Part shown: in pieces, positions 1,546 to 24,986 of the stretch | Layout of the letters: each line of letters starts with the position of its first letter | Position numbering within the stretch: position 1 is the first letter of the stretch | NCBI GenBank assembly: GCA_902785105.1 | Contig: CACZXF010000043.1 | Coordinates: forward strand, 20,580 to 84,579 | Direction: 5' to 3' | Source: an uncultured Eubacteriales bacterium | GTDB lineage: Bacteria > Bacillota > Clostridia > Christensenellales > Aristaeellaceae | Length of the DNA stretch: 64,000 bases | Translations under genes and position numbers: made by a program | Notes under the pieces: generated by a model | What the model was told of the DNA's origin: nothing | Database searches by the model: none | The model's input: only the letters and a program-made list of their open reading frames with translations

Positions 1546-2235
1546 GTGAATAAATACGTTGAAAGGCTGTACAACGGCCTCGTCAAGGAAAATCCCACGC
1601 TGATACTGATGCTGGGCATGTGCCCCACCCTGGCCGTGTCCACAAGGGCCATGAACGGCATCGGCATGGGCCTGTCCACCACGGCGGTGCTCATCCTCTC
1701 CAACGTGGTGATCTCCCTGCTTCGCAAGGTCATCCCGGACGACGTGCGCCTGCCCGCCTACATCGTCATCGTGGCCTCGCTGGTCACGGTGACGGAGCTG
1801 CTCATCGAGGCGTATCTGCCCTCGCTGTACGCGGCGCTGGGCATCTACATCCCGCTGATCGTCGTCAACTGCATCATCCTGGGCCGCGCCGAGGCCTACG
1901 CCAACAAGCACGACCCGGTGCTGTCCTTCTTCGATGGCCTGGGCATGGGCCTGGGCTTCACCATCGCCCTGACCCTGGCCGGCATGATCCGCGAGTTCCT
2001 GGGCAACGGCACCTTCTTTGGGATGCAGGCGCTGCCCAAGGGCATCGACCCCATCGGCATCTTCGTGCAGCCTCCGGGAGCCTTCCTGGTCATCGCGCTG
2101 ATCATCGCCATCCAAAATGCCATCGGCATTAAGACCCGCCAGCGCAGCCTCGTCGAGGACGGCTGCGACGGCATCTGCGCCAACTGCTCCGCCCGGTGCG
2201 GCAAGGGCCAGCCTGAGGAGGTGAGCGCCAAGTGA
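1546..2235 (+). CDS. rnfE: Rnf complex subunit E
   Basis: GTG start 8 nt after GAAGGGAGG. Polytopic, with LGMCPTLAVS and GIYIPLIVVNCIILGRAE motifs typical of RnfE/NqrD. Sits between rnfD/G and rnfA. Confidence 0.85.
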   Translation: MNKYVERLYNGLVKENPTLILMLGMCPTLAVSTRAMNGIGMGLSTTAVLILSNVVISLLRKVIPDDVRLPAYIVIVASLVTVTELLIEAYLPSLYAALGIYIPLIVVNCIILGRAEAYANKHDPVLSFFDGLGMGLGFTIALTLAGMIREFLGNGTFFGMQALPKGIDPIGIFVQPPGAFLVIALIIAIQNAIGIKTRQRSLVEDGCDGICANCSARCGKGQPEEVSAK

Positions 2236-2825: not shown

Positions 2826-3647
2826 ATGCAGATCATTGTCATCACCACGGTGGTCATCGCCATCGTCGGCCTCATCGTCGGCGCGGGGCTGGTGTTCACC
2901 GGCAAGAAGTTCTATGTGGAAGTGGATGAGCGGGAGGCCGCCGTGCGCGAATGCCTCCCCGGCAACAACTGCGGCGCCTGCGGCTATGCCGGCTGCGACG
3001 CCATGGCCGGCGCCATCGCCAAAGGCGAAGCGCCCGTGAACGGCTGCCCCGTGGGCGGCGCGCCCGTGGCCGAAAAGATCGGCGCGATCATGGGCGCTTC
3101 CGCCGACGCCGTGGAGCGCAACGTGGCCTTCGTTCGCTGCAAGGGCACCTGCGACGTCACCCACAATCAGGGCAACTACGTGGGCATCAAGGACTGCCGC
3201 GCCGCCGTCATGGCCGGCATCAACGTCACCGACTGCTCCTACGGCTGCCTCGGCTTCGGCTCCTGCCAGGCCGTGTGTCCCCAGCACGCCATAAGAGTGG
3301 TCAACGGCGTGGCCGTGGTCAGCCGCAAGCTCTGCGTTGGCTGCGGGCTGTGCGTCAAGACCTGCCCCCGGGGCCTCATCGAGCTGGTGCCGGAGAGCAA
3401 GCACGTCGCCGTCCAGTGCTCCAACCATGACCGGGGCCCCATGGTCAAGAAGGTCTGCTCCGCCGGCTGCATCGGCTGTATGCTCTGCGTGAAGCAGTGC
3501 GAGCATCAGGCCATCACCGTCACGAACAACCTCGCCCACGTCAATTACGCCAACTGCGCCCAGTGCGATAAGTGCGTATCCAAGTGCCCCGCCAAGGTCA
3601 TCACCCCCTCCCTCAATTTCGGGAAGGAGCAGGACGTTCCGGCGTAA
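2826..3647 (+). CDS. rnfB: Rnf complex subunit B (polyferredoxin-type)
   Basis: N-terminal TM helix, a CGACGYAGC cluster motif, then several CxxCxxCxxxCP 4Fe-4S motifs. Last gene of the rnf operon. Confidence 0.85.
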   Translation: MQIIVITTVVIAIVGLIVGAGLVFTGKKFYVEVDEREAAVRECLPGNNCGACGYAGCDAMAGAIAKGEAPVNGCPVGGAPVAEKIGAIMGASADAVERNVAFVRCKGTCDVTHNQGNYVGIKDCRAAVMAGINVTDCSYGCLGFGSCQAVCPQHAIRVVNGVAVVSRKLCVGCGLCVKTCPRGLIELVPESKHVAVQCSNHDRGPMVKKVCSAGCIGCMLCVKQCEHQAITVTNNLAHVNYANCAQCDKCVSKCPAKVITPSLNFGKEQDVPA

Positions 3648-3703: not shown

Positions 3704-3744
3704 CGCAATAAGAACAAGTTAACATCCTGTTGCCAATCTTGATG

Positions 3745-3773
3745 TTGACGGTTTCGTCGGGATGGAGTAAAAT
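3745..3773 (+). promoter_or_regulatory. Sigma-A type promoter for the toxin-antitoxin pair
   Basis: TTGACG, 17-nt spacer, TAAAAT, about 35 nt upstream of the antitoxin start. Confidence 0.5.
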
Positions 3774-3810
3774 AATAATAGGATTGATTTATGGAACAGG
3801 AGGGATGCAC

Positions 3811-4050
3811 ATGGCTTATTCACTGGAAAGCGTGATCTCCGCAATTCCCACGATGGAACAATCTGAATTCGACCAACTGGCCCAGGCGGTTTTCCAGCGC
3901 ATCAATGACCCAATGGCCCCTCTGACAGAAGCTCAATGGGCTGAAAAGCTGGATCGATCCATCGCACAGGCTGACCGGGGCGAACATTACGACGCGAGAG
4001 CTGCCGTCGAGCGCATACGCGCAAAATACCACCGCGAAAGAGTTGGATAG
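3811..4050 (+). CDS. Putative antitoxin (family not recognised)
   Basis: 79-aa ORF with ATG 7 nt after AGGAGGG. Its stop lies 2 nt before the RelE/ParE-like ORF. I trimmed the track start at 3730. Confidence 0.5.
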   Translation: MAYSLESVISAIPTMEQSEFDQLAQAVFQRINDPMAPLTEAQWAEKLDRSIAQADRGEHYDARAAVERIRAKYHRERVG

Positions 4051-4052
4051 TT

Positions 4053-4370
4053 GTGGAAACCTATTCCATAGAAGTAACCCCGAACGCGGATGCAGATGTG
4101 GAGCGCTGTTATCGCTATCTCGTTGAAGTTCTCCACTCTTGGGAGGCCGCAGATGCCTTTCTTGATGACTATTATGAATCGCTGGATAAGCTCAGTCTTG
4201 TAGCCGGAAAGCTGAAAATGGGCGAACACCCGCTGATGAAATCGAGGGCATTAAGGCGATTAAATTTTCATCGGCATCATTATTTCTTGCTCTACAGAAT
4301 GGAGGGACTGACCGCCGTCATTATCGCGGTCGCCCACTTTCGGCAGGACATCAGCAATGTACTGAAATAA
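4053..4370 (+). CDS. RelE/ParE-family type II toxin (putative)
   Basis: 105 aa with a GTG start directly after the upstream small ORF. Size and the pattern YRMEGLTAVIIAVAHFRQD fit ParE/RelE-fold toxins. Confidence 0.6.
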   Translation: METYSIEVTPNADADVERCYRYLVEVLHSWEAADAFLDDYYESLDKLSLVAGKLKMGEHPLMKSRALRRLNFHRHHYFLLYRMEGLTAVIIAVAHFRQDISNVLK

Positions 4371-4395
4371 CGAGCAGGGCTGCAAGGTGGTTCAA

Positions 4396-4641
4396 ATGAT
4401 GGCCAATCGACCGACAGCCGTTTCGGTGAAGCCCACAGAGGACTATCATCTGTTGGTGACCTTTGACAACCGGGAGCAGCGGCTGTTCGATGTCTCGCCC
4501 TACATCCGGGGCAATTGGTTCGGTCAGCTTCGGGACAAGGCGCTGTTTGACAAGGTCCGCATCGGCGGTCTATCCGTGGAATGGCCCGACGGACAGGACA
4601 TCTGCCCGGACCGGCTGTATTATGATAGTATACCCATTTAA
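4396..4641 (+). CDS. DUF2442-like small protein
   Basis: About 81 aa; VKPTEDYHLLVTFDNREQRLFDVSPY ... VEWPDGQDICPD resembles DUF2442. Confidence 0.55.
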   Translation: MMANRPTAVSVKPTEDYHLLVTFDNREQRLFDVSPYIRGNWFGQLRDKALFDKVRIGGLSVEWPDGQDICPDRLYYDSIPI

Positions 4642-4662: not shown

Positions 4663-5943
4663 ATGGAAACCAAGCACATTCTCCGGTTTATCGGAACAGG
4701 CGCGGTGGTGATCGCGGCGGTGGTGTTGCTGGGCGGCTTCGGCGGCAACAAGCTGATGTACCACCTGCAGAACCGGGGCGACCTGGGGCCGCTTTCCCGC
4801 GAGGACATCGAGTATCTGAATGTCGATGCTCCCGCGGCCACCAGCAGGGACGGCACCATCAACGCTCAGGACTGGTCCACCGTCTACCCCGAGATCGCCG
4901 TCAGCATGGGTGACAACAGCAAAAACAGCTATGTCACCGACTATCTGGAGCAGGACCCCTATCTGGTCAACATCTACGAGGGCTACGGCTTCGCCAAGGA
5001 CTACGGCAGCGCCCGGGGCCACGAATACACCTTAGCGGACGTCCACAAGACCCAGCGTCCCCACCCCAAGGCCAACTGCCTGACCTGCAAGACCCCGAAC
5101 TTTGCCAAACTGGTGAACGATGAGGGCGTAGGCGTCTACAGCCGCCCCTTTGAAGAGGTGGAGGCGCTGATGGAGGAGAACATCTCCTGCTACACCTGCC
5201 ACGGCAACGAGGCGGGCAACGCGGGCAAGCTGGTGGTCACCCACTCCTACGTCAACAAGGCGCTGGGCGACAACGTGAACACCATCGACCCCGCCACCCT
5301 CTCCTGCGGCCAGTGCCACATCGAGTATTACTTCACCCGCGAAGACTCCGAGACCATGATGCCCTACCACAGCGTGCAGGAGATGGCCCCAGAGGCGATA
5401 CTGGCCTATTACGACGCCATCGACTTCTACGACTGGGAGCAGGAGGCCACCGGCACGAAGATGCTCAAGGCCCAGCATCCCGAAATGGAGACCTTCCTCC
5501 AGGGCAAGCACGCCGCGCTGCTGAACTGCGCCGACTGCCACATGCCCATGGAGATGTCCGACGAGGGCACCGTCTACCACAGCCACACGCTGGTTAGCCC
5601 GTTGGACAGCCCCGCGTTGCTTGAGACCTGCGCCACCTGCCACGGCGACACCGACATGACCAAGCTGGTTCGCGGCATACAGGAGCGGGTCACCAAGCGC
5701 GAGACGGAAGTTGGCAACAAGCTCTCCGACTTCAAGGACGCCCTGGCCGACGCCGTCGCCACCGGCGCGAAGTCCGAGGCCGAGCTGGACGACCTCCGCA
5801 AGCTCCACCGGGAGGCTCAGTGGTATTTCGACTTCTGCTATGTCGAGAACTCCGAGGGCGCCCACAACTCCGAGCTGTCCATGCGCTGCCTCGATACCTC
5901 CGAGGAGAAGATCAACGAGGCCATGGCCCTGCTCACCACCTGA
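4663..5943 (+). CDS. nrfA: Ammonia-forming cytochrome c nitrite reductase NrfA-type pentahaem protein, N-terminally membrane anchored
   Basis: One CLTCK (CxxCK) site plus four CxxCH sites (CYTCH, CGQCH, CADCH, CATCH). N-terminal hydrophobic helix. Followed by system II cytochrome c maturation genes. Confidence 0.8.
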   Translation: METKHILRFIGTGAVVIAAVVLLGGFGGNKLMYHLQNRGDLGPLSREDIEYLNVDAPAATSRDGTINAQDWSTVYPEIAVSMGDNSKNSYVTDYLEQDPYLVNIYEGYGFAKDYGSARGHEYTLADVHKTQRPHPKANCLTCKTPNFAKLVNDEGVGVYSRPFEEVEALMEENISCYTCHGNEAGNAGKLVVTHSYVNKALGDNVNTIDPATLSCGQCHIEYYFTREDSETMMPYHSVQEMAPEAILAYYDAIDFYDWEQEATGTKMLKAQHPEMETFLQGKHAALLNCADCHMPMEMSDEGTVYHSHTLVSPLDSPALLETCATCHGDTDMTKLVRGIQERVTKRETEVGNKLSDFKDALADAVATGAKSEAELDDLRKLHREAQWYFDFCYVENSEGAHNSELSMRCLDTSEEKINEAMALLTT

Positions 5944-6015
5944 CCCCCGCAACCCACGGCATTGGGAGGGACACAAGCCATCCCTACCCAATGCCGTTTT
6001 GTTTGAATGGGGAGA

Positions 6016-6126
6016 ACTCCCTCAGTCAGCTTCGCTGACAGCTCCCTCTAAGAGGGAGCCATAAGGCGACCTTCCAAAAGGCTCCCTCTCTGAGGGAGCT
6101 ATCACGCGAAGCGTGACTGAGGGAGT
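6016..6126. repeat. Nested-palindrome element, family A (GAGGGAG type), copy A1
   Basis: Outer inverted repeat ACTCCCTCAGTCA/TGACTGAGGGAGT encloses sub-hairpins GTCAGCttcGCTGAC and GCTCCCTCTaaGAGGGAGC. Lies in the nrfA-ccsB spacer. Confidence 0.9.
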
Positions 6127-6149
6127 CCATCCCCCAACAAGGAACCACC

Positions 6150-7427
6150 ATGACGACATTCAAAAAGCTTTGGCGCTTCCTCTCCTCGATGAAGTTTGCC
6201 ATCATACTTCTGGTGATCCTGGCGGTGGCCTGTTCCCTGGCGAGCCTGGTGACCCAGGGTCAGGACTACGCTTGGTACGCCCAGCGCTATTCCGAGCGCA
6301 CGGCGGCGCTGATCCTGGCCCTGGGACTGGACGACGCCTTCCACAGCGTCTGGTTCATCGCCATCACCGCCTTCCTGTGCATCAATTTATTATTATGCAA
6401 CGTCCTGCGCCTGCCGGGCCTCATCAGGCGCACAAAGAGCGAGTCCGACCCCGCAAAGGTCCTCGACGCCGCCGGGGACATATCCGTCGAGAACGTCCGG
6501 GACCCCGAATCGGTATTCAAGCGCCTGGGCATGAAGCCCATCAAGGTGGAGGGCCGCGAAGCCTATTTTGCCGCGAAGCACCGCGCCGGCCTCTGGGGCG
6601 CGTGGGTCTGCCATCTGGGCATATTGCTGTTGATACTGGGCTTCGGACTGGGCCAGGCGACGCAGAAGCAATACGCGGTCTACGGCGTTCCGGGCACATC
6701 GAAACCCATCGGCGACACGGAATACGCGCTGACCATCGACGACTTCCGGGTGGGCCTGCGCGAGGACGACACCGTGGAGCAGTACACCGCCGACATCACC
6801 GTCCGCGACCTCTCCGAGAAGGGCATCGGCAGCAGCGAATCTGCCTCAATCAGCGTCAACCACCCCGCCACCCTCTACGGCATGAAGTTCTACCAGAACT
6901 CCACCGGCTGGGCGGCCACAGTCCACATCACCAAGGACGGCAAACCCCTCCAGGAGGAGGTCCTCTGCGCCGGGGAATACCTGCTGGTGAAGGACAAGCC
7001 CGAGCTGGCCATCTATCTGTCCGCCTTCTATCCGGACTATGTGATGACCCCCGGCGTCGGCCCCTCCACGGCCAGCGGCGCGCTGAACAACCCGGCCTAT
7101 CTGTATCAGGTCTACTATCAGGAGCAGGTGCTGGGCATGAACATACTGATGCCCGAGGAGGAGCTGACCATCGACGAGTACACCGTCACCTTCTCCGACC
7201 CGCAGAATTACACCCTCATCCAGATCAAGCGTGACCGCTTCACCCCGCTGGCCCTGGCCGGAGGCCTCATCACGCTGCTTGGCCTGATCCTGGCGCTGTA
7301 CCTCCAGCCCGCCCGCGTCTGGGCCATACGCACGGAAAATGGCTGGACCATCCGCGGCCAGTGCCGCAAGGGCGGCGCGCTGTTCCGGGAGCGGTTCATG
7401 AAGGCAATACAAACGGAAGAGGTATAA
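6150..7427 (+). CDS. resB: Cytochrome c biogenesis protein ResB/CcsB (system II)
   Basis: N-terminus MTTFKKLWRFLSSMKFAIILL, TM helices flanking a large extracytoplasmic loop, and a C-terminal TM. Located next to ccsA. Confidence 0.8.
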   Translation: MTTFKKLWRFLSSMKFAIILLVILAVACSLASLVTQGQDYAWYAQRYSERTAALILALGLDDAFHSVWFIAITAFLCINLLLCNVLRLPGLIRRTKSESDPAKVLDAAGDISVENVRDPESVFKRLGMKPIKVEGREAYFAAKHRAGLWGAWVCHLGILLLILGFGLGQATQKQYAVYGVPGTSKPIGDTEYALTIDDFRVGLREDDTVEQYTADITVRDLSEKGIGSSESASISVNHPATLYGMKFYQNSTGWAATVHITKDGKPLQEEVLCAGEYLLVKDKPELAIYLSAFYPDYVMTPGVGPSTASGALNNPAYLYQVYYQEQVLGMNILMPEEELTIDEYTVTFSDPQNYTLIQIKRDRFTPLALAGGLITLLGLILALYLQPARVWAIRTENGWTIRGQCRKGGALFRERFMKAIQTEEV

Positions 7428-7440
7428 ACAGGGAAAGACG

Positions 7441-7552
7441 ACTCCCTCAGTCAGCTTCGCTGACAGCTCCCTCTAAGAGGGAGCCTGAAAAGCGCCCCTC
7501 CAAAAGGCTCCCTCCCAGAGGGAGCTGGCACGCGAAGCGTGACTGAGGGAGT
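7441..7552. repeat. Family A element, copy A2
   Basis: Near-identical to A1. Lies in the ccsB-ccsA spacer. Confidence 0.9.
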
Positions 7553-7590
7553 CCGTACCCCCGGCATTGCACCATTGGAGGAAAATCCAC

Positions 7591-8406
7591 ATGCTACAGG
7601 TTGAGAACACGCTGTTCACCATCGTGATGCTGCTGTACTTCGCCGCGATGATCTGCTATTTCCTGTTCATCGCCGTGAAGAAGGATGGGATGGCAAAGAC
7701 CGCGATCATCCTTCAATCGGCGGGCCTGGTGCTGCACACGGCGGCGCTGGTCTGCCGGGGCATCGGCGCGGGGCGGCTGCCGCTGACGAACCAATATGAA
7801 TTTGCCACGGCCTTCGCCTGGGGCCTGTCGCTGGTGAGCCTGATCTTCGTGATAAGGTTCAAGTTTCCGGTGCTGGGGGCCTTCGCCGCGCCGGTGACGT
7901 TCCTGGTCATCGGCTATGCGGCCATGCAGAGCAAGGAGGTCAAGGAGCTGATGCCCGCCCTGCGGAGCAACTGGCTGGGCTTCCACGTCTCCACGGCCAT
8001 CATCGCCTACGGGGCCTTTGGCGTGTCCTTCGTGCTGGGCATCATCTTCCTGCTGCGCGACCGGATGCGGGCCAGCGGCTTCCTGGACAGCCACATCCCG
8101 GACAAGGAAAAGCTGGACATCATCAGCTATCGCAGCGTCTCCCTGGGCCTGCTGTTCCTGTCCTTCACCATCATCACCGGGGCCATCTGGGCCGAGCGGG
8201 CCTGGGGCAGCTACTGGTCCTGGGACCCCAAGGAGACCTGGTCGCTGGTCACCTGGATCATCTACGCCGCCTACCTCCACCTCCGCATCCGCCGGGGCTG
8301 GCAGGGCAAAGCCGCGGCCATATTCGCCGTGGCGGGCTTCATCTGCGTCATGTTCACCTACATCGGCGTGAACACGTTCCTGCCGGGCGTACACAGCTAC
8401 GCATAA
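7591..8406 (+). CDS. ccsA: Cytochrome c biogenesis protein CcsA/ResC (haem handling)
   Basis: ATG 9 nt after GGAGG. Polytopic, with the tryptophan-rich WGSYWSWDPKETWSL (WWD) motif. Confidence 0.85.
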   Translation: MLQVENTLFTIVMLLYFAAMICYFLFIAVKKDGMAKTAIILQSAGLVLHTAALVCRGIGAGRLPLTNQYEFATAFAWGLSLVSLIFVIRFKFPVLGAFAAPVTFLVIGYAAMQSKEVKELMPALRSNWLGFHVSTAIIAYGAFGVSFVLGIIFLLRDRMRASGFLDSHIPDKEKLDIISYRSVSLGLLFLSFTIITGAIWAERAWGSYWSWDPKETWSLVTWIIYAAYLHLRIRRGWQGKAAAIFAVAGFICVMFTYIGVNTFLPGVHSYA

Positions 8407-9497: not shown

Positions 9498-9508
9498 CGT
9501 AGAAGGGG

Positions 9509-9631
9509 GACGAACCTCTCAGTCACCTTCGGTGACAGCTCCCCTTAAAAGGGGAGCCAGGACTGCCGCCGTTCCTCCTTGGCTCCCCTTTCAGGGGAGC
9601 TGGCACGCGAAGCGTGACTGAGAGGTTCGTC
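9509..9631. repeat. Family A variant element, copy A3
   Basis: GACGAACCTCTCAGTCAC ... GTGACTGAGAGGTTCGTC with inner hairpins GTCACCttcGGTGAC and GCTCCCCTTaaaAGGGGAGC. Confidence 0.85.
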
Positions 9632-9673
9632 CCCTTCCCCGGATGCTGACACATCACCAAAAAGAACGAATAG

Positions 9674-16661: not shown

Positions 16662-16696
16662 GCTGCCATCACTTCTCTTTCAATTTAGAATTCCAT

Positions 16697-16731
16697 GCCG
16701 CACAGGATTTATTTTCCTGCGCGGCTTTTTC
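16697..16731 (+). terminator. Rho-independent terminator
   Basis: GCCGCACAGGA-loop-TCCTGCGCGGC followed by TTTTT. Confidence 0.7.
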
Positions 16732-16850
16732 CTTATAGCGAGTTTTCTGCACTATATTCTTTTCACCTTGTCCCCAAATTCTTTGTAATGCTATTTCCTG
16801 AACGCTGGATTACCCAGAATATCTTGACGCGGTCTTGTGAATTTTTTCTG

Positions 16851-16879
16851 TTGCTTAAAGGACAAAAAAGTTATATAAT
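16851..16879 (+). promoter_or_regulatory. Sigma-A type promoter of the nine-gene flavinylation/Rnf-like operon
   Basis: TTGCTT, 17 nt, TATAAT; about 30 nt upstream of the 16911 start. Confidence 0.55.
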
Positions 16880-16910
16880 AGAACTGATGATGATTAAAGG
16901 GGTTAAAAGG

Positions 16911-17321
16911 ATGAGGCGAAGGGGCGTCATGATCGCGCTGCTGCTGGCGCTTTGCCTGCTGGGCGGATGCCGGGGAAGTGCGCCGAAGGGCGACACGCAA
17001 GTGCTGCTGGACGGCAGGCCCTGGGACGGCGCGAAGCCCGGCGAAGGCGGCGACCTGCGGGTCTACGTGACGCTGGATGGCGCGGAGCTCATCGACCTGC
17101 CCTTTGACGAGCCTCACACCGTCGAGATCATACAACCCGACGGCGCGAAGAATACCGTCTCCCTCACCGGCGAGGCCGTCACCATGGCAAGTGCCAACTG
17201 CGAGAATCAGGACTGCGTCCACATGGGCGAGGTCACCCGTGACAACCTGGAGCTTCGCGTGATGGGCGGCTTCATCATCTGCCTGCCCCACAAGGTTTCG
17301 GTGGAGGTGCGGGGCAGTTAA
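16911..17321 (+). CDS. NusG-domain-II-like lipoprotein (paralogue 1)
   Basis: Lipobox LLGGC. C-terminal CENQDCVHMGEVTRDN ... IICLPHKV matches the 24558 paralogue. The track start at 16695 is rejected. Confidence 0.7.
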   Translation: MRRRGVMIALLLALCLLGGCRGSAPKGDTQVLLDGRPWDGAKPGEGGDLRVYVTLDGAELIDLPFDEPHTVEIIQPDGAKNTVSLTGEAVTMASANCENQDCVHMGEVTRDNLELRVMGGFIICLPHKVSVEVRGS

Positions 17322-17352
17322 ATATTTACTTCCTGTATATGGAGGCAATCGT

Positions 17353-18054
17353 TTGAATTCAACTGCGCAAAGGGTCGGCCGGTTTGGCCTGCTGGCGGCG
17401 CTGTCGCTGGTGCTGGGCTACTTTGACCGGGCGATACCCATTTCCATGATATTGAGCGGCGCGGTGCCCGGCATCAAGCTGGGGCTGGCGAACACGGTGC
17501 TGCTGTACGGCGTGTACATGCTGGACTGGCGGGGCTGCGTGGCGCTGATGCTGACCAAGGTCTTTCTGTCCGGCTTCATGTTCGGCTCACTGAGCGCCAT
17601 CATCTACAGTCTGGCCGGCGGCATACTGAGCCTCGCGGTGATGCTCCTGATCCGTAAAAAACCCGCTGCCGGGGCCCTGGGCATCGCCGGGCTGGCTGCA
17701 TTGAGCGATGGATTATTGTTATGGCGCAACCCCACGCCGAAGGGGCAGATGCTCTGGTGCGTGATATTGATCGGGCTGGCCTGCGCGGCTGCGATAGCGG
17801 TGTTTATATTCATCCGCAAAAATCCCGCCTTCGGGGTCATGGGGACCTCCCTGGCCGGGGCCGTGGCCCACAACGTCGGCCAGATCCTCGCCGCCGCGGG
17901 AATGCTCCACACCCCTCAATTGCTCTGGACCTACCTCCCCGTGCTGATCGGCATCGGCGCGGCCGTGGGCTGCCTGACAGGCTTCGTGGCCCAGCGGGTG
18001 TTCAAGGCGCTGAAGATACCGGCGGGGATGGCTCAACCGGAAAAACAGGACTGA
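17353..18054 (+). CDS. Gx-transporter / Hpre_diP_synt_I-type polytopic membrane protein
   Basis: TTG start 7 nt after GGAGG. About 6 TM helices and Gly-rich. This family (PF07456-like) is usually adjacent to NusG_II-type genes. Confidence 0.6.
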   Translation: MNSTAQRVGRFGLLAALSLVLGYFDRAIPISMILSGAVPGIKLGLANTVLLYGVYMLDWRGCVALMLTKVFLSGFMFGSLSAIIYSLAGGILSLAVMLLIRKKPAAGALGIAGLAALSDGLLLWRNPTPKGQMLWCVILIGLACAAAIAVFIFIRKNPAFGVMGTSLAGAVAHNVGQILAAAGMLHTPQLLWTYLPVLIGIGAAVGCLTGFVAQRVFKALKIPAGMAQPEKQD

Positions 18055-18069
18055 TTTAAGGAGATATTG

Positions 18070-19062
18070 ATGAAAAACACGCGCTTCCTGGCGATATTGA
18101 CCGCGCTGCTGATGCTGCTTTCGACCCTTCCGGGCTGTGCCGCGCCGGAGAAGGAGAAGAAGTCCTCTGTGGGCTTCTATCTGGACACGGTGATCACGCT
18201 GACGGCCTATGTGGACGATCAGGCGGTGCTGGAGGACGCGCTGAAGGAGTGCGGGCGCTATGAGCGCATGCTCTCCCGCACCATCGAGGGCAGCGACGTC
18301 TGGAACATCAACCACGCGAACGGTCAGCCGGTGGAGGTCTCCGACGACACCCTGGCCATACTGGACGTGGCCCGGCAGGTCAGTGAGCGCTCCGAAGGGA
18401 CCTTTGACGTGACCATCGCCCCGGTCTCCACCATGTGGGACTTCACCTCCGGCGCGGCGGTAGTGCCCGACGCCAAGGACATCGAAGCGGCGGCCGAGCG
18501 GGTGGATTATTCCCAGGTCACCATAGACGGCAACTCTGTAACCCTCCCCGCGGGCATGATGATCGACCTGGGCGGCATCGCCAAGGGCTACATCGCCGAC
18601 GCGGTGAAGGGGTATCTTATGGAGCGGGGCGTGGAGAGCGCCATACTCTCCTTCGGGGGCAACATCGTCGCCATCGGCTTGAAGCCCGACGGTTCCCCCT
18701 GGAAGGTGGGCATACAGGATATCGACGAGCCCACGGGCAACTACATGCTCGTGGCACTGAACCGGGGCGGCTCCACCGTCACCAGCGGCATCTACGAGCG
18801 CGGCTTCGAGGCCGACGGTGTGTACTACCACCACATTCTCGACGCCAAGACCGGCTGGCCGGTTCAAAATGAGCTGGCCTCCGTCACCATATTCTCCGAA
18901 AGCTCCATGTGGGGCGACGCCCTGGCCACCGCCGCCTTCGCCCTCGGCACCGAGGCGGGCACGGCGCTCATCGAGTCGCTGCCCGACATCGAGGCGGTTT
19001 TCATCGCGAGGGACAGGAGCGTCAGCTATACCTCCGGAGCGAAGGACTATATGGTCGAATGA
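18070..19062 (+). CDS. apbE: ApbE-type FAD:protein FMN transferase lipoprotein
   Basis: Lipobox LPGC. Contains DLGGIAKGYIAD, TSGIYERGF and HHILDAKTGWP, typical of ApbE/Ftp. Confidence 0.85.
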   Translation: MKNTRFLAILTALLMLLSTLPGCAAPEKEKKSSVGFYLDTVITLTAYVDDQAVLEDALKECGRYERMLSRTIEGSDVWNINHANGQPVEVSDDTLAILDVARQVSERSEGTFDVTIAPVSTMWDFTSGAAVVPDAKDIEAAAERVDYSQVTIDGNSVTLPAGMMIDLGGIAKGYIADAVKGYLMERGVESAILSFGGNIVAIGLKPDGSPWKVGIQDIDEPTGNYMLVALNRGGSTVTSGIYERGFEADGVYYHHILDAKTGWPVQNELASVTIFSESSMWGDALATAAFALGTEAGTALIESLPDIEAVFIARDRSVSYTSGAKDYMVE

Positions 19063-19107
19063 ACAGGGATATTCAATATCAACTATATAATAAAGGGGGA
19101 AGGGCAA

Positions 19108-21057
19108 GTGAGCAAGAAACTGCCCACATGGGTTGCGGTCCCGGCGGTGTGCGTAGCTTCGGCACTGCTGGCGACGGGTGTGAACGGCGCGACCCACGAC
19201 CAGATCGACCGGCAGGCGGCGAAGCGTGAAAACGCGCCGCTGGCCGGGGTGATCGAGGCGGCTCAGTTTGAGCCGACAGAGCTGAAGGAGAGCCGCTACA
19301 GCGTGGAGAACGTCTACACGGCGCTGAACGACGCGGGCGAAAAGGTGGGCTACGTGGGCAAGACCACGGTGTCCGGCTACGGCGGGCCCATCGAGGTCAC
19401 CGCGGGCGTGGACAACGCGGGCGCGATCACCGGCGTGAACGTCGGCGGCGACACCTTCAACGAGACGCCCGGCCTGGGCGGGCTGACCCGCGAGCCGAGG
19501 TTCGCGAAGCAGTTCGTCGGCAAGGCGGCGGGCGTAGACCTCAACAGCGAGGAGAACACCGAGGGCGTGGACGGCATCGCCGGGGCCACCATCTCCTCCC
19601 GGGGCGTGCTGGGCGGCGTCAACAACATCGTCAGCTATGTCAGCGCCGCTGAGCTGGGCATCCTCCAGGAGAAGGAGGAGGTCTACATGGGGCCGACGGT
19701 CTCCGCCACGGAGAAGGGCTTCGCCGGGGACGTCACCGTCACCGCGGGGCTGGACGACGAGGGCGCCATCGTCTATCTGGACATCCAGACGCCCGACGAG
19801 ACCGAGGGCCTGGGCAAGCGCTGCTCCGAGCCTGAGTTCATCAATCAGTTCATCGGCAAGAAGGGACCCTTCGCCTACGGCGAGGACGGCGTCGAGGCCA
19901 TCTCCGGCGCGTCCTTCACCTCCACAGCCGTCATCAACGCGCTGAACACCATCGCCAATGGCGGTGGCACGGCCTCCGAGGGCCCGCTGTCCGCGACGGT
20001 GCAGGGCTTCGGCGGCGATGTGACCGTCAATGTCATGCTCAATCCCGATAACTCCATCGGCGCGCTGTCCATCGACACGCCCAATGAGACCGAGGGGCTG
20101 GGCAAGCGCACCTCCGAACCCGAGTTCACCGACCAGTTCATCGGCAAGCATGCCCCCTTCACCTATGGCGAGGACGGCATCGAGGCCGTGACCGGGGCCA
20201 CCGTGACCTCCACTGCCGTCATCAACGCGCTGAACGACCTCGTCCCCGCCGGTGAAGCCGCTCCCGCCTCCGCGGAAGCCGCCGCGCCCGCCGAGGAGGC
20301 CGCGCCCGCTGAGACTGAAGCGCCCGTGGAGGAAGCCGCGCCTGTTGAAGAGGCCGCGCCCGTCGCCGGGACGACTGTCGAGGACATGATGCGCGAGCGC
20401 CCGGTAGACTCCGCCCTGCAAAATGCCGCTGCTGCCGTGGCAGGGAACGTCGTCAAGGGCAGTCTGGACAGCATGATGCGCCAGCGCCCCGACGAGGCCG
20501 CGCTGGAAGCCGCTAAGGCCGAACCGGCGGCGGAAGAAGCGCCTGTCGAAGCGGTTGAGACTGACCCCAGCCGCCTAATGCGTCAGCGTCTCGCCGAGAG
20601 TGCCTTTATCAAGGCTGAACCGGCGGTTGAGGAAGAGACTGTCGTCGAGGCTGAACCGGTCGTTGAAGAAGATACCGAACCGGCGGCGGAAGAAGCGCCT
20701 GTAGCCGAAGCGGTTGAGACTGACCCCAGCCGCCTGATGCGTCAGCGTCCCGCCGAGAGTGCTTTTGTCAAGGCTGAACCGGCGGTCGAAGAAGAGACTG
20801 TCATTGAGGCTGAACCGACGGCGGAAGAAGAAGCCGTTGTCGAGGCTGAATCGGCGGCCGAGGAAGAAGCCGCTGCCGAGGCTGAACCGGAGGCCGAGGA
20901 AGTGCCCGTGGCCGAAGCGGCCCAGGGCGACGCCAGCCGTTTGATGCGGGAGCGTCCCGCGGCGCAGACTGCCATCGAAGCGGCGGAGGCCGAAGCGGAA
21001 GCGCCCAATATTGACAAGTATATGCGCCCCAGACCCGCGACTGTTGCGGGGGCGTAA
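19108..21057 (+). CDS. Membrane-anchored protein with three tandem FMN_bind (RnfG/NqrC-like) domains and a repetitive acidic C-terminal tail
   Basis: N-terminal anchor. Three domains each keep a flavinylation-type motif (IAGATISS, ISGASFTS, VTGATVTS). Domains 2 and 3 are close duplicates. The tail carries MR(Q/E)RP motifs. Confidence 0.8.
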   Translation: MSKKLPTWVAVPAVCVASALLATGVNGATHDQIDRQAAKRENAPLAGVIEAAQFEPTELKESRYSVENVYTALNDAGEKVGYVGKTTVSGYGGPIEVTAGVDNAGAITGVNVGGDTFNETPGLGGLTREPRFAKQFVGKAAGVDLNSEENTEGVDGIAGATISSRGVLGGVNNIVSYVSAAELGILQEKEEVYMGPTVSATEKGFAGDVTVTAGLDDEGAIVYLDIQTPDETEGLGKRCSEPEFINQFIGKKGPFAYGEDGVEAISGASFTSTAVINALNTIANGGGTASEGPLSATVQGFGGDVTVNVMLNPDNSIGALSIDTPNETEGLGKRTSEPEFTDQFIGKHAPFTYGEDGIEAVTGATVTSTAVINALNDLVPAGEAAPASAEAAAPAEEAAPAETEAPVEEAAPVEEAAPVAGTTVEDMMRERPVDSALQNAAAAVAGNVVKGSLDSMMRQRPDEAALEAAKAEPAAEEAPVEAVETDPSRLMRQRLAESAFIKAEPAVEEETVVEAEPVVEEDTEPAAEEAPVAEAVETDPSRLMRQRPAESAFVKAEPAVEEETVIEAEPTAEEEAVVEAESAAEEEAAAEAEPEAEEVPVAEAAQGDASRLMRERPAAQTAIEAAEAEAEAPNIDKYMRPRPATVAGA

Positions 21058-21102
21058 CCGTTGTAATAACCGATATATGATACAACACTGGAGGTGCTGA
21101 AA

Positions 21103-22452
21103 TTGTCGAGTAACAATACCTTTCGCGGGGGCGTGCATCCGCTGCACGGCGCTCACGAGGGAAAATCGCCGACGCGGGGCCAGGCGGTGATCGATTACAC
21201 CGCCGAAACCGTGACCATCATGATGGGCATGCACCTGGGCGCACCCAGCACCCCGACGGTGCAGGTGGGCGACCACGTGAAGCTGGGCCAGCAGATCGCG
21301 GACCCGGTGGGCTTCCTGGGCCTGCCGGTGCACGCCAGCGTGTCCGGCGAGGTCATCGCCGTGGGCCCGGTGCAGTCGGTGATGAATCCCGCGGCCATGG
21401 CCGTGACCATCAAAAATGACTTCAAGGACGAGTGGGTGGACACGCTGGAGCCCCTGGGCGACGTGGAGACCTGCGACCCGACTAAAATCGTGCCCGCCAT
21501 CAAGGCCGCCGGCGTCTGCGGCCAGGGCGGCGCGTCCTTCCCGACGCACGTCAAATTCGCGGTGAAGGAAGGGCAGTATTGCGATACCATCATCGTCAAC
21601 GGCGCGGAGTGCGAGACCCATCTGACCTGCGACCACCGGCTGATGCTGGAGCAGAGCAAGCGCATCGTGGACGGCCTCCGGGCGGCCATGCGGGCGCTGG
21701 ACGTGAAAAAGGGCGTCATCGCCATCGAGGACAACAAGCCCGACGCCATCGAAGCCATGCGCAAGGCGGCGGAGGGCCGGGACGGCGTGGAGATCATGCC
21801 GCTGATGACCAAATACCCCCAGGGCGGTGAGAAACAGCTCATCCAGGTGGTGACGGGCCGCGAGGTGCCCACCAAGAAGCTGCCGCTGGATGTACACGTC
21901 ATCGTGCTGAACGTTTCCACCGCCAAGTCCATCGCCGACGCGGTCATCGAGGGCAAGCCCCTCATCACCCGCATTACCACCGTCACCGGCCACGTGGTGC
22001 GTCCCTGCAACTTCCGGGTGCGCGTGGGCACCATGGTGGACGAGCTCATCGCCGAATGCGGGGGCTACAGCATCCCCGAGGACCAGGTGGGCAAGGTCGT
22101 CATGGGCGGCGCGATGACCGGCTTCCCCTGCCCGAACACCACGCATATCCCGATTGCCAAGGCCAACGGCGGCGTGGTGGTCTACAGCGAGGAGGAATCG
22201 AAGGACTACGACGAGGACCCCTGCATCCGCTGCGGCCGCTGCGTGGAGGCCTGCCCCATCGGGCTGAATCCCTACAAGCTCAAGTATTTCTGCGATGCCG
22301 GCGACATGAAGCGGGCAGGCGAGTGGTGCGTGATGGACTGCGTGGTCTGCGGAAGTTGCTCCTATATCTGCCCCGCCCACCGCAGGCTCACATCGTCGTT
22401 CAAGGCCATGAAGGACAAGATCGCCGCGGAGGCGAGGAAAGGAAAGGGGTAA
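21103..22452 (+). CDS. rnfC: Rnf complex subunit C-type protein
   Basis: TTG start 8 nt after TGGAGG (the track start GTG 21094 overlaps the SD). Contains FRGGVHP, GGASFPT, CIRCGRCVEACP and CVVCGSCSYICP. Confidence 0.85.
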   Translation: MSSNNTFRGGVHPLHGAHEGKSPTRGQAVIDYTAETVTIMMGMHLGAPSTPTVQVGDHVKLGQQIADPVGFLGLPVHASVSGEVIAVGPVQSVMNPAAMAVTIKNDFKDEWVDTLEPLGDVETCDPTKIVPAIKAAGVCGQGGASFPTHVKFAVKEGQYCDTIIVNGAECETHLTCDHRLMLEQSKRIVDGLRAAMRALDVKKGVIAIEDNKPDAIEAMRKAAEGRDGVEIMPLMTKYPQGGEKQLIQVVTGREVPTKKLPLDVHVIVLNVSTAKSIADAVIEGKPLITRITTVTGHVVRPCNFRVRVGTMVDELIAECGGYSIPEDQVGKVVMGGAMTGFPCPNTTHIPIAKANGGVVVYSEEESKDYDEDPCIRCGRCVEACPIGLNPYKLKYFCDAGDMKRAGEWCVMDCVVCGSCSYICPAHRRLTSSFKAMKDKIAAEARKGKG

Positions 22453-22458
22453 TCGGTC

Positions 22459-23391
22459 ATGAAGCTTCATCTTTCTCCGGCGCCCCACGTGCATAGTCCT
22501 CAAACCACGCGGGCGCTGATGCTCAACGTGCTGGTGGCGCTGATCCCCTGCGCCATCGCTGGCGTCTATCTCTTCGGCTTCAGCGCGATACTGCTGATGC
22601 TGGTGTCCGTCCTCTCCGCCGTGGCGGGGGAGGCGATCATACAGAAGATTTTGGGGCAGAAGTCCCGGATCAACGATATGTCCGCCGCCGTCACCGGCCT
22701 GATACTGGCGCTGAACCTGTCCCCCCGGACGCCCTGGTGGGTGGCGATGGCGGGCAGCCTGTTCGCCGTCATCGTCGTCAAGGGCCTGTTCGGCGGGCTG
22801 GGCGACAACTTCCTGAACCCGGCGCTGGCCGCCCGCGCCTTCCTGCTGGTGTGCTGGCCCCGCTATCTGACCACCTGGGCCGCGCCCCTGGCCGCCGACG
22901 CGGTGGCCGGCGCGACGCCCTTAGCCAATCCCGCGGGCTACACGCTGGGGCAGCTCTTCCTGGGCAACATCCCCGGCTCCATCGGTGAGGTCTGCAAGCC
23001 CGCCATACTGCTGGGCCTGGTGTACCTGCTGTTTACCAAGACCATCACCTGGCAGATCCCCGTGTACATGACCGCCTTCACCGGCGTGTTCTGCGCGCTG
23101 ATGGGCGGCGGGTTCGTGGAGTCCATGCTCTCCGGCGGCGTGCTGTTCGCGGCGGTGTTCATGGCGACGGATTACGTCACCTGCCCCATGTCCACGAAGG
23201 GACAGATCGTCTACGCGGCGGGCATCGGCCTCATCATCGCGCTGATCCGCAAGTTCGGCCTGTATCCCGAGGGCGTCACCTTCGCCATACTGCTGATGAA
23301 CGTCGCCACCCCCATCATCGACCGCTTCACCAAGCGCCGCGTCTACGGCTACGAGGACAACAAGAAGAAGGAGGCGAAGGCAAATGGATAA
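22459..23391 (+). CDS. rnfD: Rnf complex subunit D-type protein
   Basis: Starts MKLHLSPAPHVHSPQTT. Polytopic, with the DAVAGATPL flavinylation-type motif. Confidence 0.85.
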   Translation: MKLHLSPAPHVHSPQTTRALMLNVLVALIPCAIAGVYLFGFSAILLMLVSVLSAVAGEAIIQKILGQKSRINDMSAAVTGLILALNLSPRTPWWVAMAGSLFAVIVVKGLFGGLGDNFLNPALAARAFLLVCWPRYLTTWAAPLAADAVAGATPLANPAGYTLGQLFLGNIPGSIGEVCKPAILLGLVYLLFTKTITWQIPVYMTAFTGVFCALMGGGFVESMLSGGVLFAAVFMATDYVTCPMSTKGQIVYAAGIGLIIALIRKFGLYPEGVTFAILLMNVATPIIDRFTKRRVYGYEDNKKKEAKANG

Positions 23392-23983
23392 CAGGACCTC
23401 CAACGGCATCCTTGCCGGCAATCCGCTGTTCCGTTTGGGTCTGGGCGTTTGCCCGGCGCTGGCGGTGACCACCTGCGCCTCGGCGGCCCTGGGCATGGGC
23501 GTCGCCACGGCCTGCGTGCTGGTGTGCAGCAGCCTCGTTGCTTTCGTATTGGGCAAGGTCGTCTCCGAAAAGGGCACCGTGGCGACCTGGATCATGGTCA
23601 CGGCCTGCTTCGCCACGGTGGCGCAGTTCATATTGAAGGGCTGGTTCCCGGAACTGGCTTCTGAGCTGGGCATATTTGTGCCGCTGATCGCCGTCAGCTC
23701 CCTCCTGCTGAGCCGGGCGGATTTCGCGTCCAACAACAGCCTCGGCGCGGCCATGGGCGACGCCGTGGGCATGGGCATCGGCTATATCATCGCCATGACC
23801 CTCGTGGGCATCGTCCGCGAAATTCTGGGCCAGGGCACGCTGTTCGGCTCCGACCTGCTGCCCTTCACCCCCATGACCCTGGTGGCCCTCCCTGCCGGCG
23901 GCTTCATCGTGCTGGGCCTGCTGATGGGCTGCTGGAACGCCATCACGGCGAAAAAGAACGGGAAGGAGGAGACTCAGGCATGA
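23384..23983 (+). CDS. rnfE: Rnf complex subunit E-type protein
   Basis: Overlaps the rnfD end. LGVCPALAVT and GIFVPLIAVSSLLLSRA motifs. Confidence 0.8.
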   Translation: MDNRTSNGILAGNPLFRLGLGVCPALAVTTCASAALGMGVATACVLVCSSLVAFVLGKVVSEKGTVATWIMVTACFATVAQFILKGWFPELASELGIFVPLIAVSSLLLSRADFASNNSLGAAMGDAVGMGIGYIIAMTLVGIVREILGQGTLFGSDLLPFTPMTLVALPAGGFIVLGLLMGCWNAITAKKNGKEETQA

Positions 23984-24561
23984 CCGATATTTCCCGCATT
24001 CTGCTCTTCATGGTGGGCTGCATATTCACCCACAACGTGGTGTTCGATAGGATGCTGGGCGTCCACGACGCGGGCCAGCCCCGGCGCTTCGAGACCTCCG
24101 TCATCTACGGCGTGGCGGTCTGCATCGTCATGACCCTCTCCGCCGTGTGCTGCTGGGCCGTCCAGACCCTGCTGCTGGCCCCCATGCACATGGAATACTT
24201 GCAGATCATCGCCTTCTCCCTCGTGGTGGTGGCAGTGACTGCGCTGACCCAGCTCTGCGTGAGCAAGGTAAAACCCGAATGGATGGAGACCTTGGATAAC
24301 TGCCTCATGCCCATTGCCGCCAACTGCGCCGTGCTGGGCATCGCCATCGTCAACGCCGAGGCGGGGTATACCTTCGGCTACGCGCTGCTGAGCGGCCTCT
24401 GCGGCGGGCTGGGCTTCCTGCTGGCCATCGTGCTGCTGGCGGGCGTGTATGAAAAGCTGGAGTTCGCCAAGGTCCCCGAGCCCTTCAAGGGCATGCCCAT
24501 TGCCGTCATCTCCGCCGGTCTCATCGCCCTGGCCTTCATCGGCTTCAAGGGCATCGCATGA
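23980..24561 (+). CDS. rnfA: Rnf complex subunit A-type protein
   Basis: ATGA overlap with the preceding gene. Six TM helices; MPIAANCAVLGIA motif. Confidence 0.8.
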   Translation: MTDISRILLFMVGCIFTHNVVFDRMLGVHDAGQPRRFETSVIYGVAVCIVMTLSAVCCWAVQTLLLAPMHMEYLQIIAFSLVVVAVTALTQLCVSKVKPEWMETLDNCLMPIAANCAVLGIAIVNAEAGYTFGYALLSGLCGGLGFLLAIVLLAGVYEKLEFAKVPEPFKGMPIAVISAGLIALAFIGFKGIA

Positions 24562-24986
24562 GGCGGATATTCGCGGCGGCGCTGGCAGTCCTGCTGCTGA
24601 CCGCCGCCGCTGTGGCCGAACCCACCGCTGAACCGTCCGTGGAGCCGTCCGCATCGCCAAAGCCCGCCAAGGGCTATGTGCTGGTGCAGACCGCCACGCA
24701 GCTGGGCTGGCTCCCCCTCCCCGAGGAGGGCGAGCAGTCCGTCCCCATCAAGCAGATCCTCCCCGACGGGACCGAGGCGGAAAACATCGTCCATCTCACC
24801 CCCGAGGGCGTCTGGATGGAGGACTCCACCTGCGAAAACCACGATTGCGTCAATCAGGGCGAGGTCACGCTGGACAACAAGGCCGACAGGATACTCGGCA
24901 ACATGATCATCTGCCTCCCCAATCAGGTCATGCTGGCACTGTATACCCCGGAGGAAGTGCTGAAGCTGATGAAGGAGGAGCAATAG
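24558..24986 (+). CDS. NusG-domain-II-like secreted protein (paralogue 2)
   Basis: ATGA overlap with the rnfA stop. Has a signal peptide. CENHDCVNQGEVTLDN ... IICLPNQV parallels the 16911 protein. Confidence 0.7.
   Translation: MRRIFAAALAVLLLTAAAVAEPTAEPSVEPSASPKPAKGYVLVQTATQLGWLPLPEEGEQSVPIKQILPDGTEAENIVHLTPEGVWMEDSTCENHDCVNQGEVTLDNKADRILGNMIICLPNQVMLALYTPEEVLKLMKEEQ

Follow-up and report, generated by a model that had tools for sequence, protein, structure and literature searches.

A pentahaem nitrite reductase gene in a conserved module with the rnf operon of quinone-less rumen bacteria, and Rnf as its putative electron donor

The gene of a pentahaem cytochrome c nitrite reductase (nrfA) and the split pair of genes for haem attachment which follows it (ccsB, ccsA) lie behind an rnf operon in the genome of an uncultured Eubacteriales bacterium. 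The stretch of DNA analysed, 64,000 nucleotides long and called the window in the following, corresponds to positions 20580-84579 of contig C43; the host genome measures 3.44 Mb in 131 contigs, and is 91.9% complete. The eight genes from rnfC to ccsA almost certainly make up one conserved, mobile module, of which nrfA-ccsB-ccsA is the distal part. Because this eight-gene block is common to quinone-less rumen bacteria, Rnf, and not a quinol-oxidising partner, is the most likely donor of NrfA. Electrons from ferredoxin or reduced nicotinamide adenine dinucleotide (NADH) would be passed, via the outward-facing flavin of RnfG, to NrfA, and would support quinone-independent nitrite ammonification. 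From the comparative sequence data described below, we give this reading a probability of about 0.6.

The rnf-nrfA-ccsB-ccsA module

Genes of the module, and the islet inserted in it, are listed in window coordinates; rnfC lies on contig C43 upstream of the window.

-1424 to -24: rnfC, 466 aa, from the listing of open reading frames (ORFs) of the contig
1-1544, + strand: rnfD~rnfG in-frame fusion, 523 aa, start 27 nt before the window
1546-2235, + strand: rnfE, 71-91% identity to its positional counterparts in 70+ related loci
2232-2813, + strand: rnfA, 78-94% identity to its positional counterparts in related loci
2826-3647, + strand: rnfB, N-terminal helix and iron-sulfur (Fe-S) domains (Pfam FeS, several Fer4 families)
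3730-4641, + strand: inserted islet, made of an antitoxin-like gene (3730-4050), a ParE toxin gene (4053-4370) and a DUF2442 gene (4387-4641)
4663-5943, + strand: nrfA, membrane-anchored pentahaem cytochrome c nitrite reductase, 426 aa
6150-7427, + strand: ccsB/resB, system II biogenesis (Pfam ResB, PF05140, 3.3e-51), single copy in the genome
7567-8406, + strand: ccsA (Cytochrom_C_asm, PF01578, 8.1e-56), single copy in the genome

In a collection of species-representative genomes, 264 stretches contain relatives of NrfA, and 80 related loci were compared. All are from rumen and gut metagenome-assembled genomes (MAGs) labelled Clostridia, Oscillospiraceae, Lachnospiraceae, Erysipelotrichaceae or Spirochaetes. 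rnfB and nrfA reside on one strand in 75/80 loci, and the order rnfC-rnfD~G-rnfE-rnfA-rnfB-nrfA-ccsB-ccsA, again on one strand, is kept in almost all loci whose upstream DNA reaches far enough. nrfA is directly followed by ccsB in 78/80 loci, and by ccsA too where the contig extends that far. No more than 90 nt separate the rnfB stop from the nrfA start in 66/75 loci (mode 12 nt, median ~12 nt), and the two genes overlap in 3/75. Inserts of 0.2-3.5 kb are found at the junction in eight loci, a class to which the window belongs. In L070 (9095-11212) a TAA>AAA change in the 12-nt junction, relative to the sister locus L068, has joined RnfB and NrfA in a single in-frame protein. In the relatives, adjacency, 12-nt gaps, overlaps and fusion argue for a single rnf-nrfA transcript; in the window the junction is interrupted by an islet with a promoter-like site of its own.

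In a preliminary description of the window the rnf operon was viewed, along with a toxin-antitoxin pair, as an unrelated upstream neighbour, and the donor of NrfA was called unexplained. This view is not sustained by the comparison, as nrfA follows rnfB in 75 related loci and the pair in the window is an insertion into this junction. To judge from the relatives, the whole toxin-antitoxin/DUF2442 islet is an insertion into the rnfB-nrfA junction of the window. It is missing from 66/75 junctions, parts of it are found in the two closest relatives (antitoxin and ParE in L001, DUF2442 in L002), and its guanine-cytosine content is 0.52-0.55, as compared with ~0.62 in the flanks. The assignments of ParE_toxin (3.8e-07) and DUF2442 (5.5e-14) are from Pfam. 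The nrfA ATG is 21 nt from the DUF2442 stop.

When all genes of 81 regions were clustered, conservation around nrfA proved to be confined to the eight module genes. An additional conserved partner is rejected, as every flanking gene is limited to 6/81 loci or fewer. In the 46 loci with all eight proteins, pairwise distances of NrfA correlate with those of RnfC, RnfDG and RnfB with r=0.63-0.66, and Rnf subunits do no better among themselves (r=0.44-0.75). Some loci feature additional extracytoplasmic reductases at the junction, behind the same Rnf. Genes for tatA, tatC and a protein with a twin-arginine (Tat) signal, a flavin mononucleotide-binding FMN_bind domain and a FAD_binding_2 domain lie between rnfB and nrfA in L013 (6498-9964); a 2xFMN_bind+FAD_binding_2 protein and an exported NusG_II protein are encoded in the same place in L057 (7137-9868) and L064 (3278-5814). 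In L058 (8201-11119) rnfB is directly followed by one ORF of 973 aa, made of a helix, FMN_bind, a fumarate-reductase-like FAD_binding_2 domain and a complete NrfA. Flavoprotein reductases of the FMN_bind/FAD type are found in or beside the module in 6/80 loci.

Identity of elongation factor G (EF-G) to that of the window host is 49% in two Spirochaete hosts, 60% in a Solobacterium host and 63-65% in two Lachnospiraceae hosts. In the same genomes, module proteins are more similar, at nearly uniform levels: 84-89% for RnfA, 77-80% for RnfE, 67-75% for RnfB, 68-74% for NrfA and 64-66% for RnfC. In the tree of the concatenated module, Spirochaete modules nest inside those of Bacillota, and Erysipelotrichaceae modules among those of Lachnospiraceae. 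A sample of 399 genomes, evenly drawn from the class of the window host, was searched for comparison. RnfD was found in 298/399, and in all of these, members of the same family and order included, it is at most 51% identical to that of the window, while RnfD of module bearers reaches 57-84% identity even in other families and a different phylum. NrfA of any kind was found in just two further genomes of the sample. Mere vertical inheritance of the Rnf adjacency is rejected because EF-G identity is below that of the module, RnfD of the class does not exceed 51%, and Spirochaete modules nest among the others. These comparisons of sequences and trees show that the module crossed phyla as one unit.

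The Rnf of the module is complete, as rnfC, rnfD~G, rnfE, rnfA and rnfB encode all six subunits in one operon. The rnfD~G product matches Pfam NQR2_RnfD_RnfE (9e-82) and FMN_bind (7.9e-18), and the solved chains 7ZC6_D (1.7e-67) and 7ZC6_G (about 1e-19 to 1e-20). Its flavinylation motifs are intact (DGVTGATP in the RnfD part, TVSGAST in the RnfG part), and the TGATP and SGAS residues align to the 7ZC6 sites; an ApbE is also encoded in the genome, at 18067-19062. A single RnfB was identified by tblastn in the genome of the window; the count is one per genome in all six module genomes tested, the gene always adjoining nrfA.

RnfD and RnfG are a single polypeptide in all copies of the module. The fusion was considered as a marker of the NrfA link and rejected as not specific. 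D-G fusions of 41-45% identity reside in six genomes of the class sample which lack NrfA, and the fusion is therefore either older than the link or independent of it.

NrfA, haem attachment and the lack of quinol-side partners

The window NrfA matches Pfam Cytochrom_C552 (PF02335; E=1.9e-78, 264.8 bits against a cut-off of 24.1 bits) and the solved NrfA structures of Shewanella (3UBR, 1.7e-51) and E. coli (1GU6, 3.4e-48). Five haem motifs are present (CLTCK, CYTCH, CGQCH, CADCH, CATCH), and a hydrophobic anchor spans residues 8-28. Arg118, Tyr222 and His272 align with the catalytic R106, Y216 and H264 of the E. coli enzyme, and Glu221, Lys269 and Gln271 with its Ca2+-site residues E215, K261 and Q263. 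All these residues, and the haem motifs, are invariant in an alignment of 11 homologues. Reduction of nitrite to ammonium is a predicted activity of the protein. NrfA stays below both NCBIfam equivalog cut-offs (NF008339, 225 vs 595 bits; TIGR03152, 186 vs 692 bits), and is therefore placed in a divergent NrfA clade. The preliminary description had named the three genes correctly and at these positions, and had recognised the CLTCK site, the four CxxCH sites, the N-terminal helix and the split system II pair (ResB/CcsB, and CcsA with the WWD motif) directly after nrfA; profile and structure matches agree with these gene identities. It had left room for a different multihaem family, which the match of the Arg/Tyr/His and Ca2+ residues to NrfA speaks against.

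A juxtamembrane segment, MYHLxNRGxLGPLTRxDI, follows the anchor and is kept in nearly all rnf-linked NrfAs; a long low-complexity linker takes its place in the NrfA of L079 and L080. Conservation of the segment fits a possible docking role. Long NrfA ORFs in L006, L024, L002 and other loci were considered as true extensions and rejected, being merely open upstream frames. A tandem NrfA-NrfA fusion of 817 aa was found in a Solobacterium MAG (L017:9983-12433); the Cytochrom_C552 domain and the CxxCK motif each occur twice in it, and CxxCH occurs eight times.

NrfA is the sole ORF with at least four haem motifs in the 3.44-Mb genome, as determined by counting haem motifs in six-frame ORFs of the whole genome. 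Other ORFs with 2-3 CxxCH are zinc-finger proteins, such as DnaJ. CcsA scores 265 bits against TIGR03144 (cut-off 187.6 bits), and the WWD motif of this haem-handling subunit reads WGSYWSWDPKETW. Judged by its homologues, its true start is probably the ATG at 7591 (MLQVENT...). A lyase dedicated to the CxxCK haem had been expected next to nrfA in the preliminary description. The argument does not fit, because CcsB/CcsA is the only cytochrome c synthase of the genome, and must attach all five haems, that of CxxCK included. NrfA being the only c-type cytochrome of the hosts, CcsBA travels with nrfA. For the thiol-reducing branch, no match to CcdA/DsbD (PF02683) was found in the host genome; ResA was not searched for. 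The hemB gene of this genome is on contig C30.

Palindromic repeats fill spacers of the distal part of the module.

6009-6133, no strand assigned: palindromic multi-hairpin repeat, ~125 nt, in the nrfA-ccsB spacer (repeat search)
7434-7561: further copy, in the ccsB-ccsA spacer
9506-9634: further copy, after the sugar kinase gene

The repeat yields 78 blastn high-scoring segment pairs, spread over 27 of the genome's contigs. In relatives, the corresponding spacers are nearly empty. Despite the islet and the two spacer repeats, every module gene is intact in the window.

No quinol-side partner of NrfA was identified. The NrfH/NapC family (PF03264) has no match in 16/16 module genomes, that of the window included, NrfD (PF03916) has none in the window genome, and no second multihaem ORF lies within 10 kb either side of nrfA in the 80 loci. 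NrfH, NrfB or NrfCD encoded elsewhere in the genome are rejected, as the genome searches were negative; what had been noted for the surroundings of nrfA thus extends to the whole genome (PF03264, PF03916, multihaem scan). No UbiA-family prenyltransferase scores above the Pfam cut-off in 16/16 module genomes, a profile which finds a match in 14/14 reference genomes. This agrees with the non-quinol donor suggested in the preliminary description. MenA was not found in the window genome either, and the menaquinone route is rejected, since both MenA and UbiA-family proteins are lacking. As to a demethylmenaquinone route, of the kind used in flavin-based extracellular electron transfer, no UbiA-family protein is encoded in the genome; EetA, EetB and PplA were not searched for. 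In the lack of NrfH, NrfD and UbiA-type prenyltransferases, no quinone route is therefore available. The unassembled ~8% of the genome, as well as monohaem cytochromes, lie outside the reach of these absence calls.

The electron donor of NrfA

In the Rnf structures 7ZC6 and 9ERI, RnfG and RnfD each carry a covalently bound flavin mononucleotide (FMN) on the outer side of the complex. Electrons travel through RnfB, the Fe-S centre of RnfA/E, RnfG-FMN, RnfD-FMN, riboflavin and RnfC. In the proposed mechanism electrons would enter the module Rnf from reduced ferredoxin, via RnfB and the RnfA/E centre, and/or from NADH, via RnfC and RnfD. They would reach the covalent FMN of the outward-facing RnfG domain, and from there branch to the haems of NrfA, which may be held beside Rnf by its own N-terminal helix and the MYHLxNRGxLGPLTRxDI segment. 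External nitrite would then be reduced by NrfA to ammonium, with six electrons. The drop to the nitrite/ammonium couple would be large from ferredoxin and from NADH alike. Ferredoxin entry would keep the ion-translocating step of Rnf and, speculatively, result in an energy-conserving, quinone-free respiration. Fusion of NrfA to the cytosolic C-terminus of RnfB, as in L070, would be workable in terms of topology because the NrfA helix crosses outward.

A stronger version can be put forward, to which we assign slightly less than even odds. Rnf and NrfA may form a physical supercomplex, working as an ion-pumping ferredoxin (or NADH):nitrite oxidoreductase. This would amount to a full respiratory chain that needs neither quinones nor b- or c-type carriers in the membrane, and that fermentative rumen bacteria exchange across phyla as an eight-gene cassette with its own haem-attachment system. 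This lineage of Rnf may then be a general socket for extracytoplasmic reductases, namely NrfA, FMN/FAD reductases and fusions of them.

Several observations weigh against Rnf as the donor. The RnfD and RnfG parts look canonical when compared with 7ZC6 and 9ERI, and no obvious docking insert was found in them. In the window a promoter-like site lies within the islet (3745-3773, promoter scan) and a hairpin follows the rnfB stop; the two may uncouple nrfA transcription from rnf here. ccsA is placed elsewhere in the genome in L035 and L071. L078-L080 carry nrfA-ccsBA without rnf upstream, and in two of the three genomes (L079, L080) the sole RnfB is encoded elsewhere and is 44% identical. In two low-GC Clostridia a lipoprotein NrfA (39-43% identity) is followed by ccsB and ccsA (L081, G161:C24, 6254-9315; L082, G300:C11, 9023-12402) with neither rnf nor nrfH nearby; RnfD is encoded in both genomes. 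NrfH-less NrfA cassettes are accordingly broader than the Rnf-linked clade. In Desulfovibrio alaskensis, a multihaem cytochrome encoded with rnf, DhcA, is dispensable in most conditions (10.1101/005694). As all module hosts are MAGs, absences in them are provisional. Adjacency could also reflect co-regulation, because the module Rnf is the only canonical Rnf of the hosts and presumably serves as housekeeping ferredoxin:NAD+ oxidoreductase.

This last point leads to the alternative that the linkage is merely regulatory, or a by-product of transfer, and that NrfA draws on free reduced flavins, sulfide or another diffusible donor, or on an unrecognised monohaem or membrane protein. Cassettes without adjacent rnf (L078-L080, G161, G300), the canonical appearance of the module Rnf and the Desulfovibrio DhcA, which resides beside rnf without a clear role in Rnf, are in line with it. 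We regard it as unlikely, since the 12-nt junction, overlaps and an in-frame fusion have been maintained over ~70 species, the eight genes co-diverge and moved between phyla together, and no other neighbour is conserved. Furthermore, electrons must have a route across the membrane, and apart from Rnf no candidate for it is encoded in the 16 genomes in which NrfH and UbiA were sought.

A different source of electrons is suggested by a second Rnf-like operon, located 8 kb downstream.

16695-24986, + strand: Rnf-like operon lacking RnfB (Pfam; 33-39% identity to the first rnf set)
18067-19062, + strand: apbE, within the second operon (Pfam)

The operon encodes a NusG_II protein, a Gx-type membrane protein, ApbE, a triple FMN_bind protein, RnfC/D/E/A-like proteins and a second NusG_II protein. 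Six copies of a rare motif, [LM]MRxRP or, in its fuller form, (T/I)D(P)xx[LM]MRxRP, lie in the acidic Ala/Glu/Pro tail (20200-21057) which ends the triple FMN_bind protein. C-terminal tails with seven [LM]MRxRP each (L020:11240-11866; P0113, residues ~435-654) mark the NrfA of two other organisms, and no Pfam domain was found in them. The pattern occurs 10 times in six-frame ORFs of the window genome, six times within the triple FMN_bind tail. The motif may be a docking peptide shared by extracytoplasmic redox proteins.

The preliminary description had proposed nearby exported flavoproteins as the donor. As a general donor of NrfA the second operon is rejected, since it is missing from 5/5 other module-bearing genomes, none of which has a second RnfC-like gene, and RnfC-like and ApbE-like genes outside the module were found in L019 alone among the 80 loci. 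What is left of the proposal is an additional route in this one genome, in which electrons would run from NADH through the RnfC/D/E/A-like core and the exported triple-FMN_bind protein to the window NrfA. Its closeness to nrfA, the presence of ApbE, an exported protein with three FMN_bind domains and an Rnf-like core, and the MRxRP motif common to this flavoprotein and the L020 and P0113 tails, which hints at a shared docking partner, are in favour of such a route. The window NrfA itself is without an MRxRP tail and, together with the absence of the operon from the other genomes, this makes the route quite improbable.

Lastly, NrfA might act mainly as a detoxifier or electron dump, for nitrite, nitric oxide, hydroxylamine or sulfite, with entry at the NADH side and no energy conservation; NrfA enzymes do reduce the three latter compounds too, nitrite is toxic and episodic in the rumen, and the hosts are fermenters, but the module retains all six Rnf subunits, RnfB included, which renders this reading very doubtful, and, being concerned with physiology, it still needs Rnf or another conduit and is compatible with Rnf as the donor.

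Relation to known systems and significance

The closest parallel is found in Methanosarcina, where the multihaem cytochrome MmcA is encoded in, and needed by, the Rnf complex, and takes Rnf electrons on the external side of the membrane (10.1101/2023.04.20.537704). The M. acetivorans operon mmcA-rnfCDGEAB and the module have in common a multihaem cytochrome of the NrfA/OTR/HAO superfamily. They differ in that MmcA is a heptahaem carrier to methanophenazine or extracellular acceptors, whereas NrfA is a terminal reductase. mmcA is archaeal and first in its operon, while nrfA is bacterial and placed after rnfB, and only the window module brings its own CcsBA. MmcA-type Rnf has been stated to be absent from Bacteria (10.1101/2023.04.20.537704); the window cytochrome is an NrfA, not of the MmcA/OTR type, and its hosts are bacteria without membrane carriers.

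A branch of RNF to extracytosolic acceptors was proposed by Meheust et al. (2021, eLife; PMC8238504), who described RnfGs with a multihaem domain in some Christensenellales. NrfA and nitrite ammonification are not mentioned in that paper, and PF02335, K03385 and nrfA do not appear in the supplements searched. Unlike the multi-flavin and multihaem RnfGs reported there, RnfG of the window has a single FMN_bind domain, fused to RnfD, and the cytochrome is a separate enzyme. In D. alaskensis G20 a multihaem cytochrome c is cotranscribed with rnf (dhcA-rnfCDGEABF; 10.1101/005694). The function of DhcA, which has ten haems, is unknown, and D. alaskensis, unlike the window host, has quinones and many cytochromes. 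NrfA of Natranaerofaba carboxydovora resides, as here, in a Gram-positive, quinone-less host, is membrane-anchored, lacks NrfH and has an unknown donor; its gene is in a nap locus, not behind rnf, and Rnf was not proposed as the donor (PMC8359318). No description of an rnf-nrfA operon was found in the literature covered, from which subscription journals were left out. Rumen papers naming both rnf and nrfA handle them separately.

With NrfHA of Wolinella and Desulfovibrio and NrfABCD of E. coli, the module shares the five-haem catalytic subunit, its CxxCK haem, R/Y/H active site and Ca2+ site included, and the linkage of a cytochrome c synthase gene to nrfA, as nrfI or nrfEFG in those systems. 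The window genome differs in having no NrfH, NrfB, NrfC, NrfD or quinone biosynthesis, and its NrfA is self-anchored. Wolinella attaches the CxxCK haem by the dedicated NrfI; the synthase of the window is a general system II pair, and not a CxxCK-dedicated isoenzyme as in NrfHA systems.

Dissimilatory reduction of nitrite to ammonium is, in textbooks, quinol-dependent, and proceeds via NrfH or NrfBCD. If electrons are delivered to NrfA by Rnf, strictly fermentative, quinone-free Firmicutes and Spirochaetes would own a respiratory electron sink, and the Rnf complex a third outlet, besides ferredoxin and NAD. NrfH-less NrfAs of Gram-positive bacteria would be explained. Being self-contained, the module can be tested by transfer to a cytochrome-free, Rnf-containing anaerobe. 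Its hosts are abundant uncultured rumen bacteria. Nitrate is fed to ruminants in order to lower methane, a practice limited by nitrite toxicity. Removal of nitrite at the expense of ferredoxin or NADH would divert reductant from H2, and organisms and genes of the module are therefore of practical interest.

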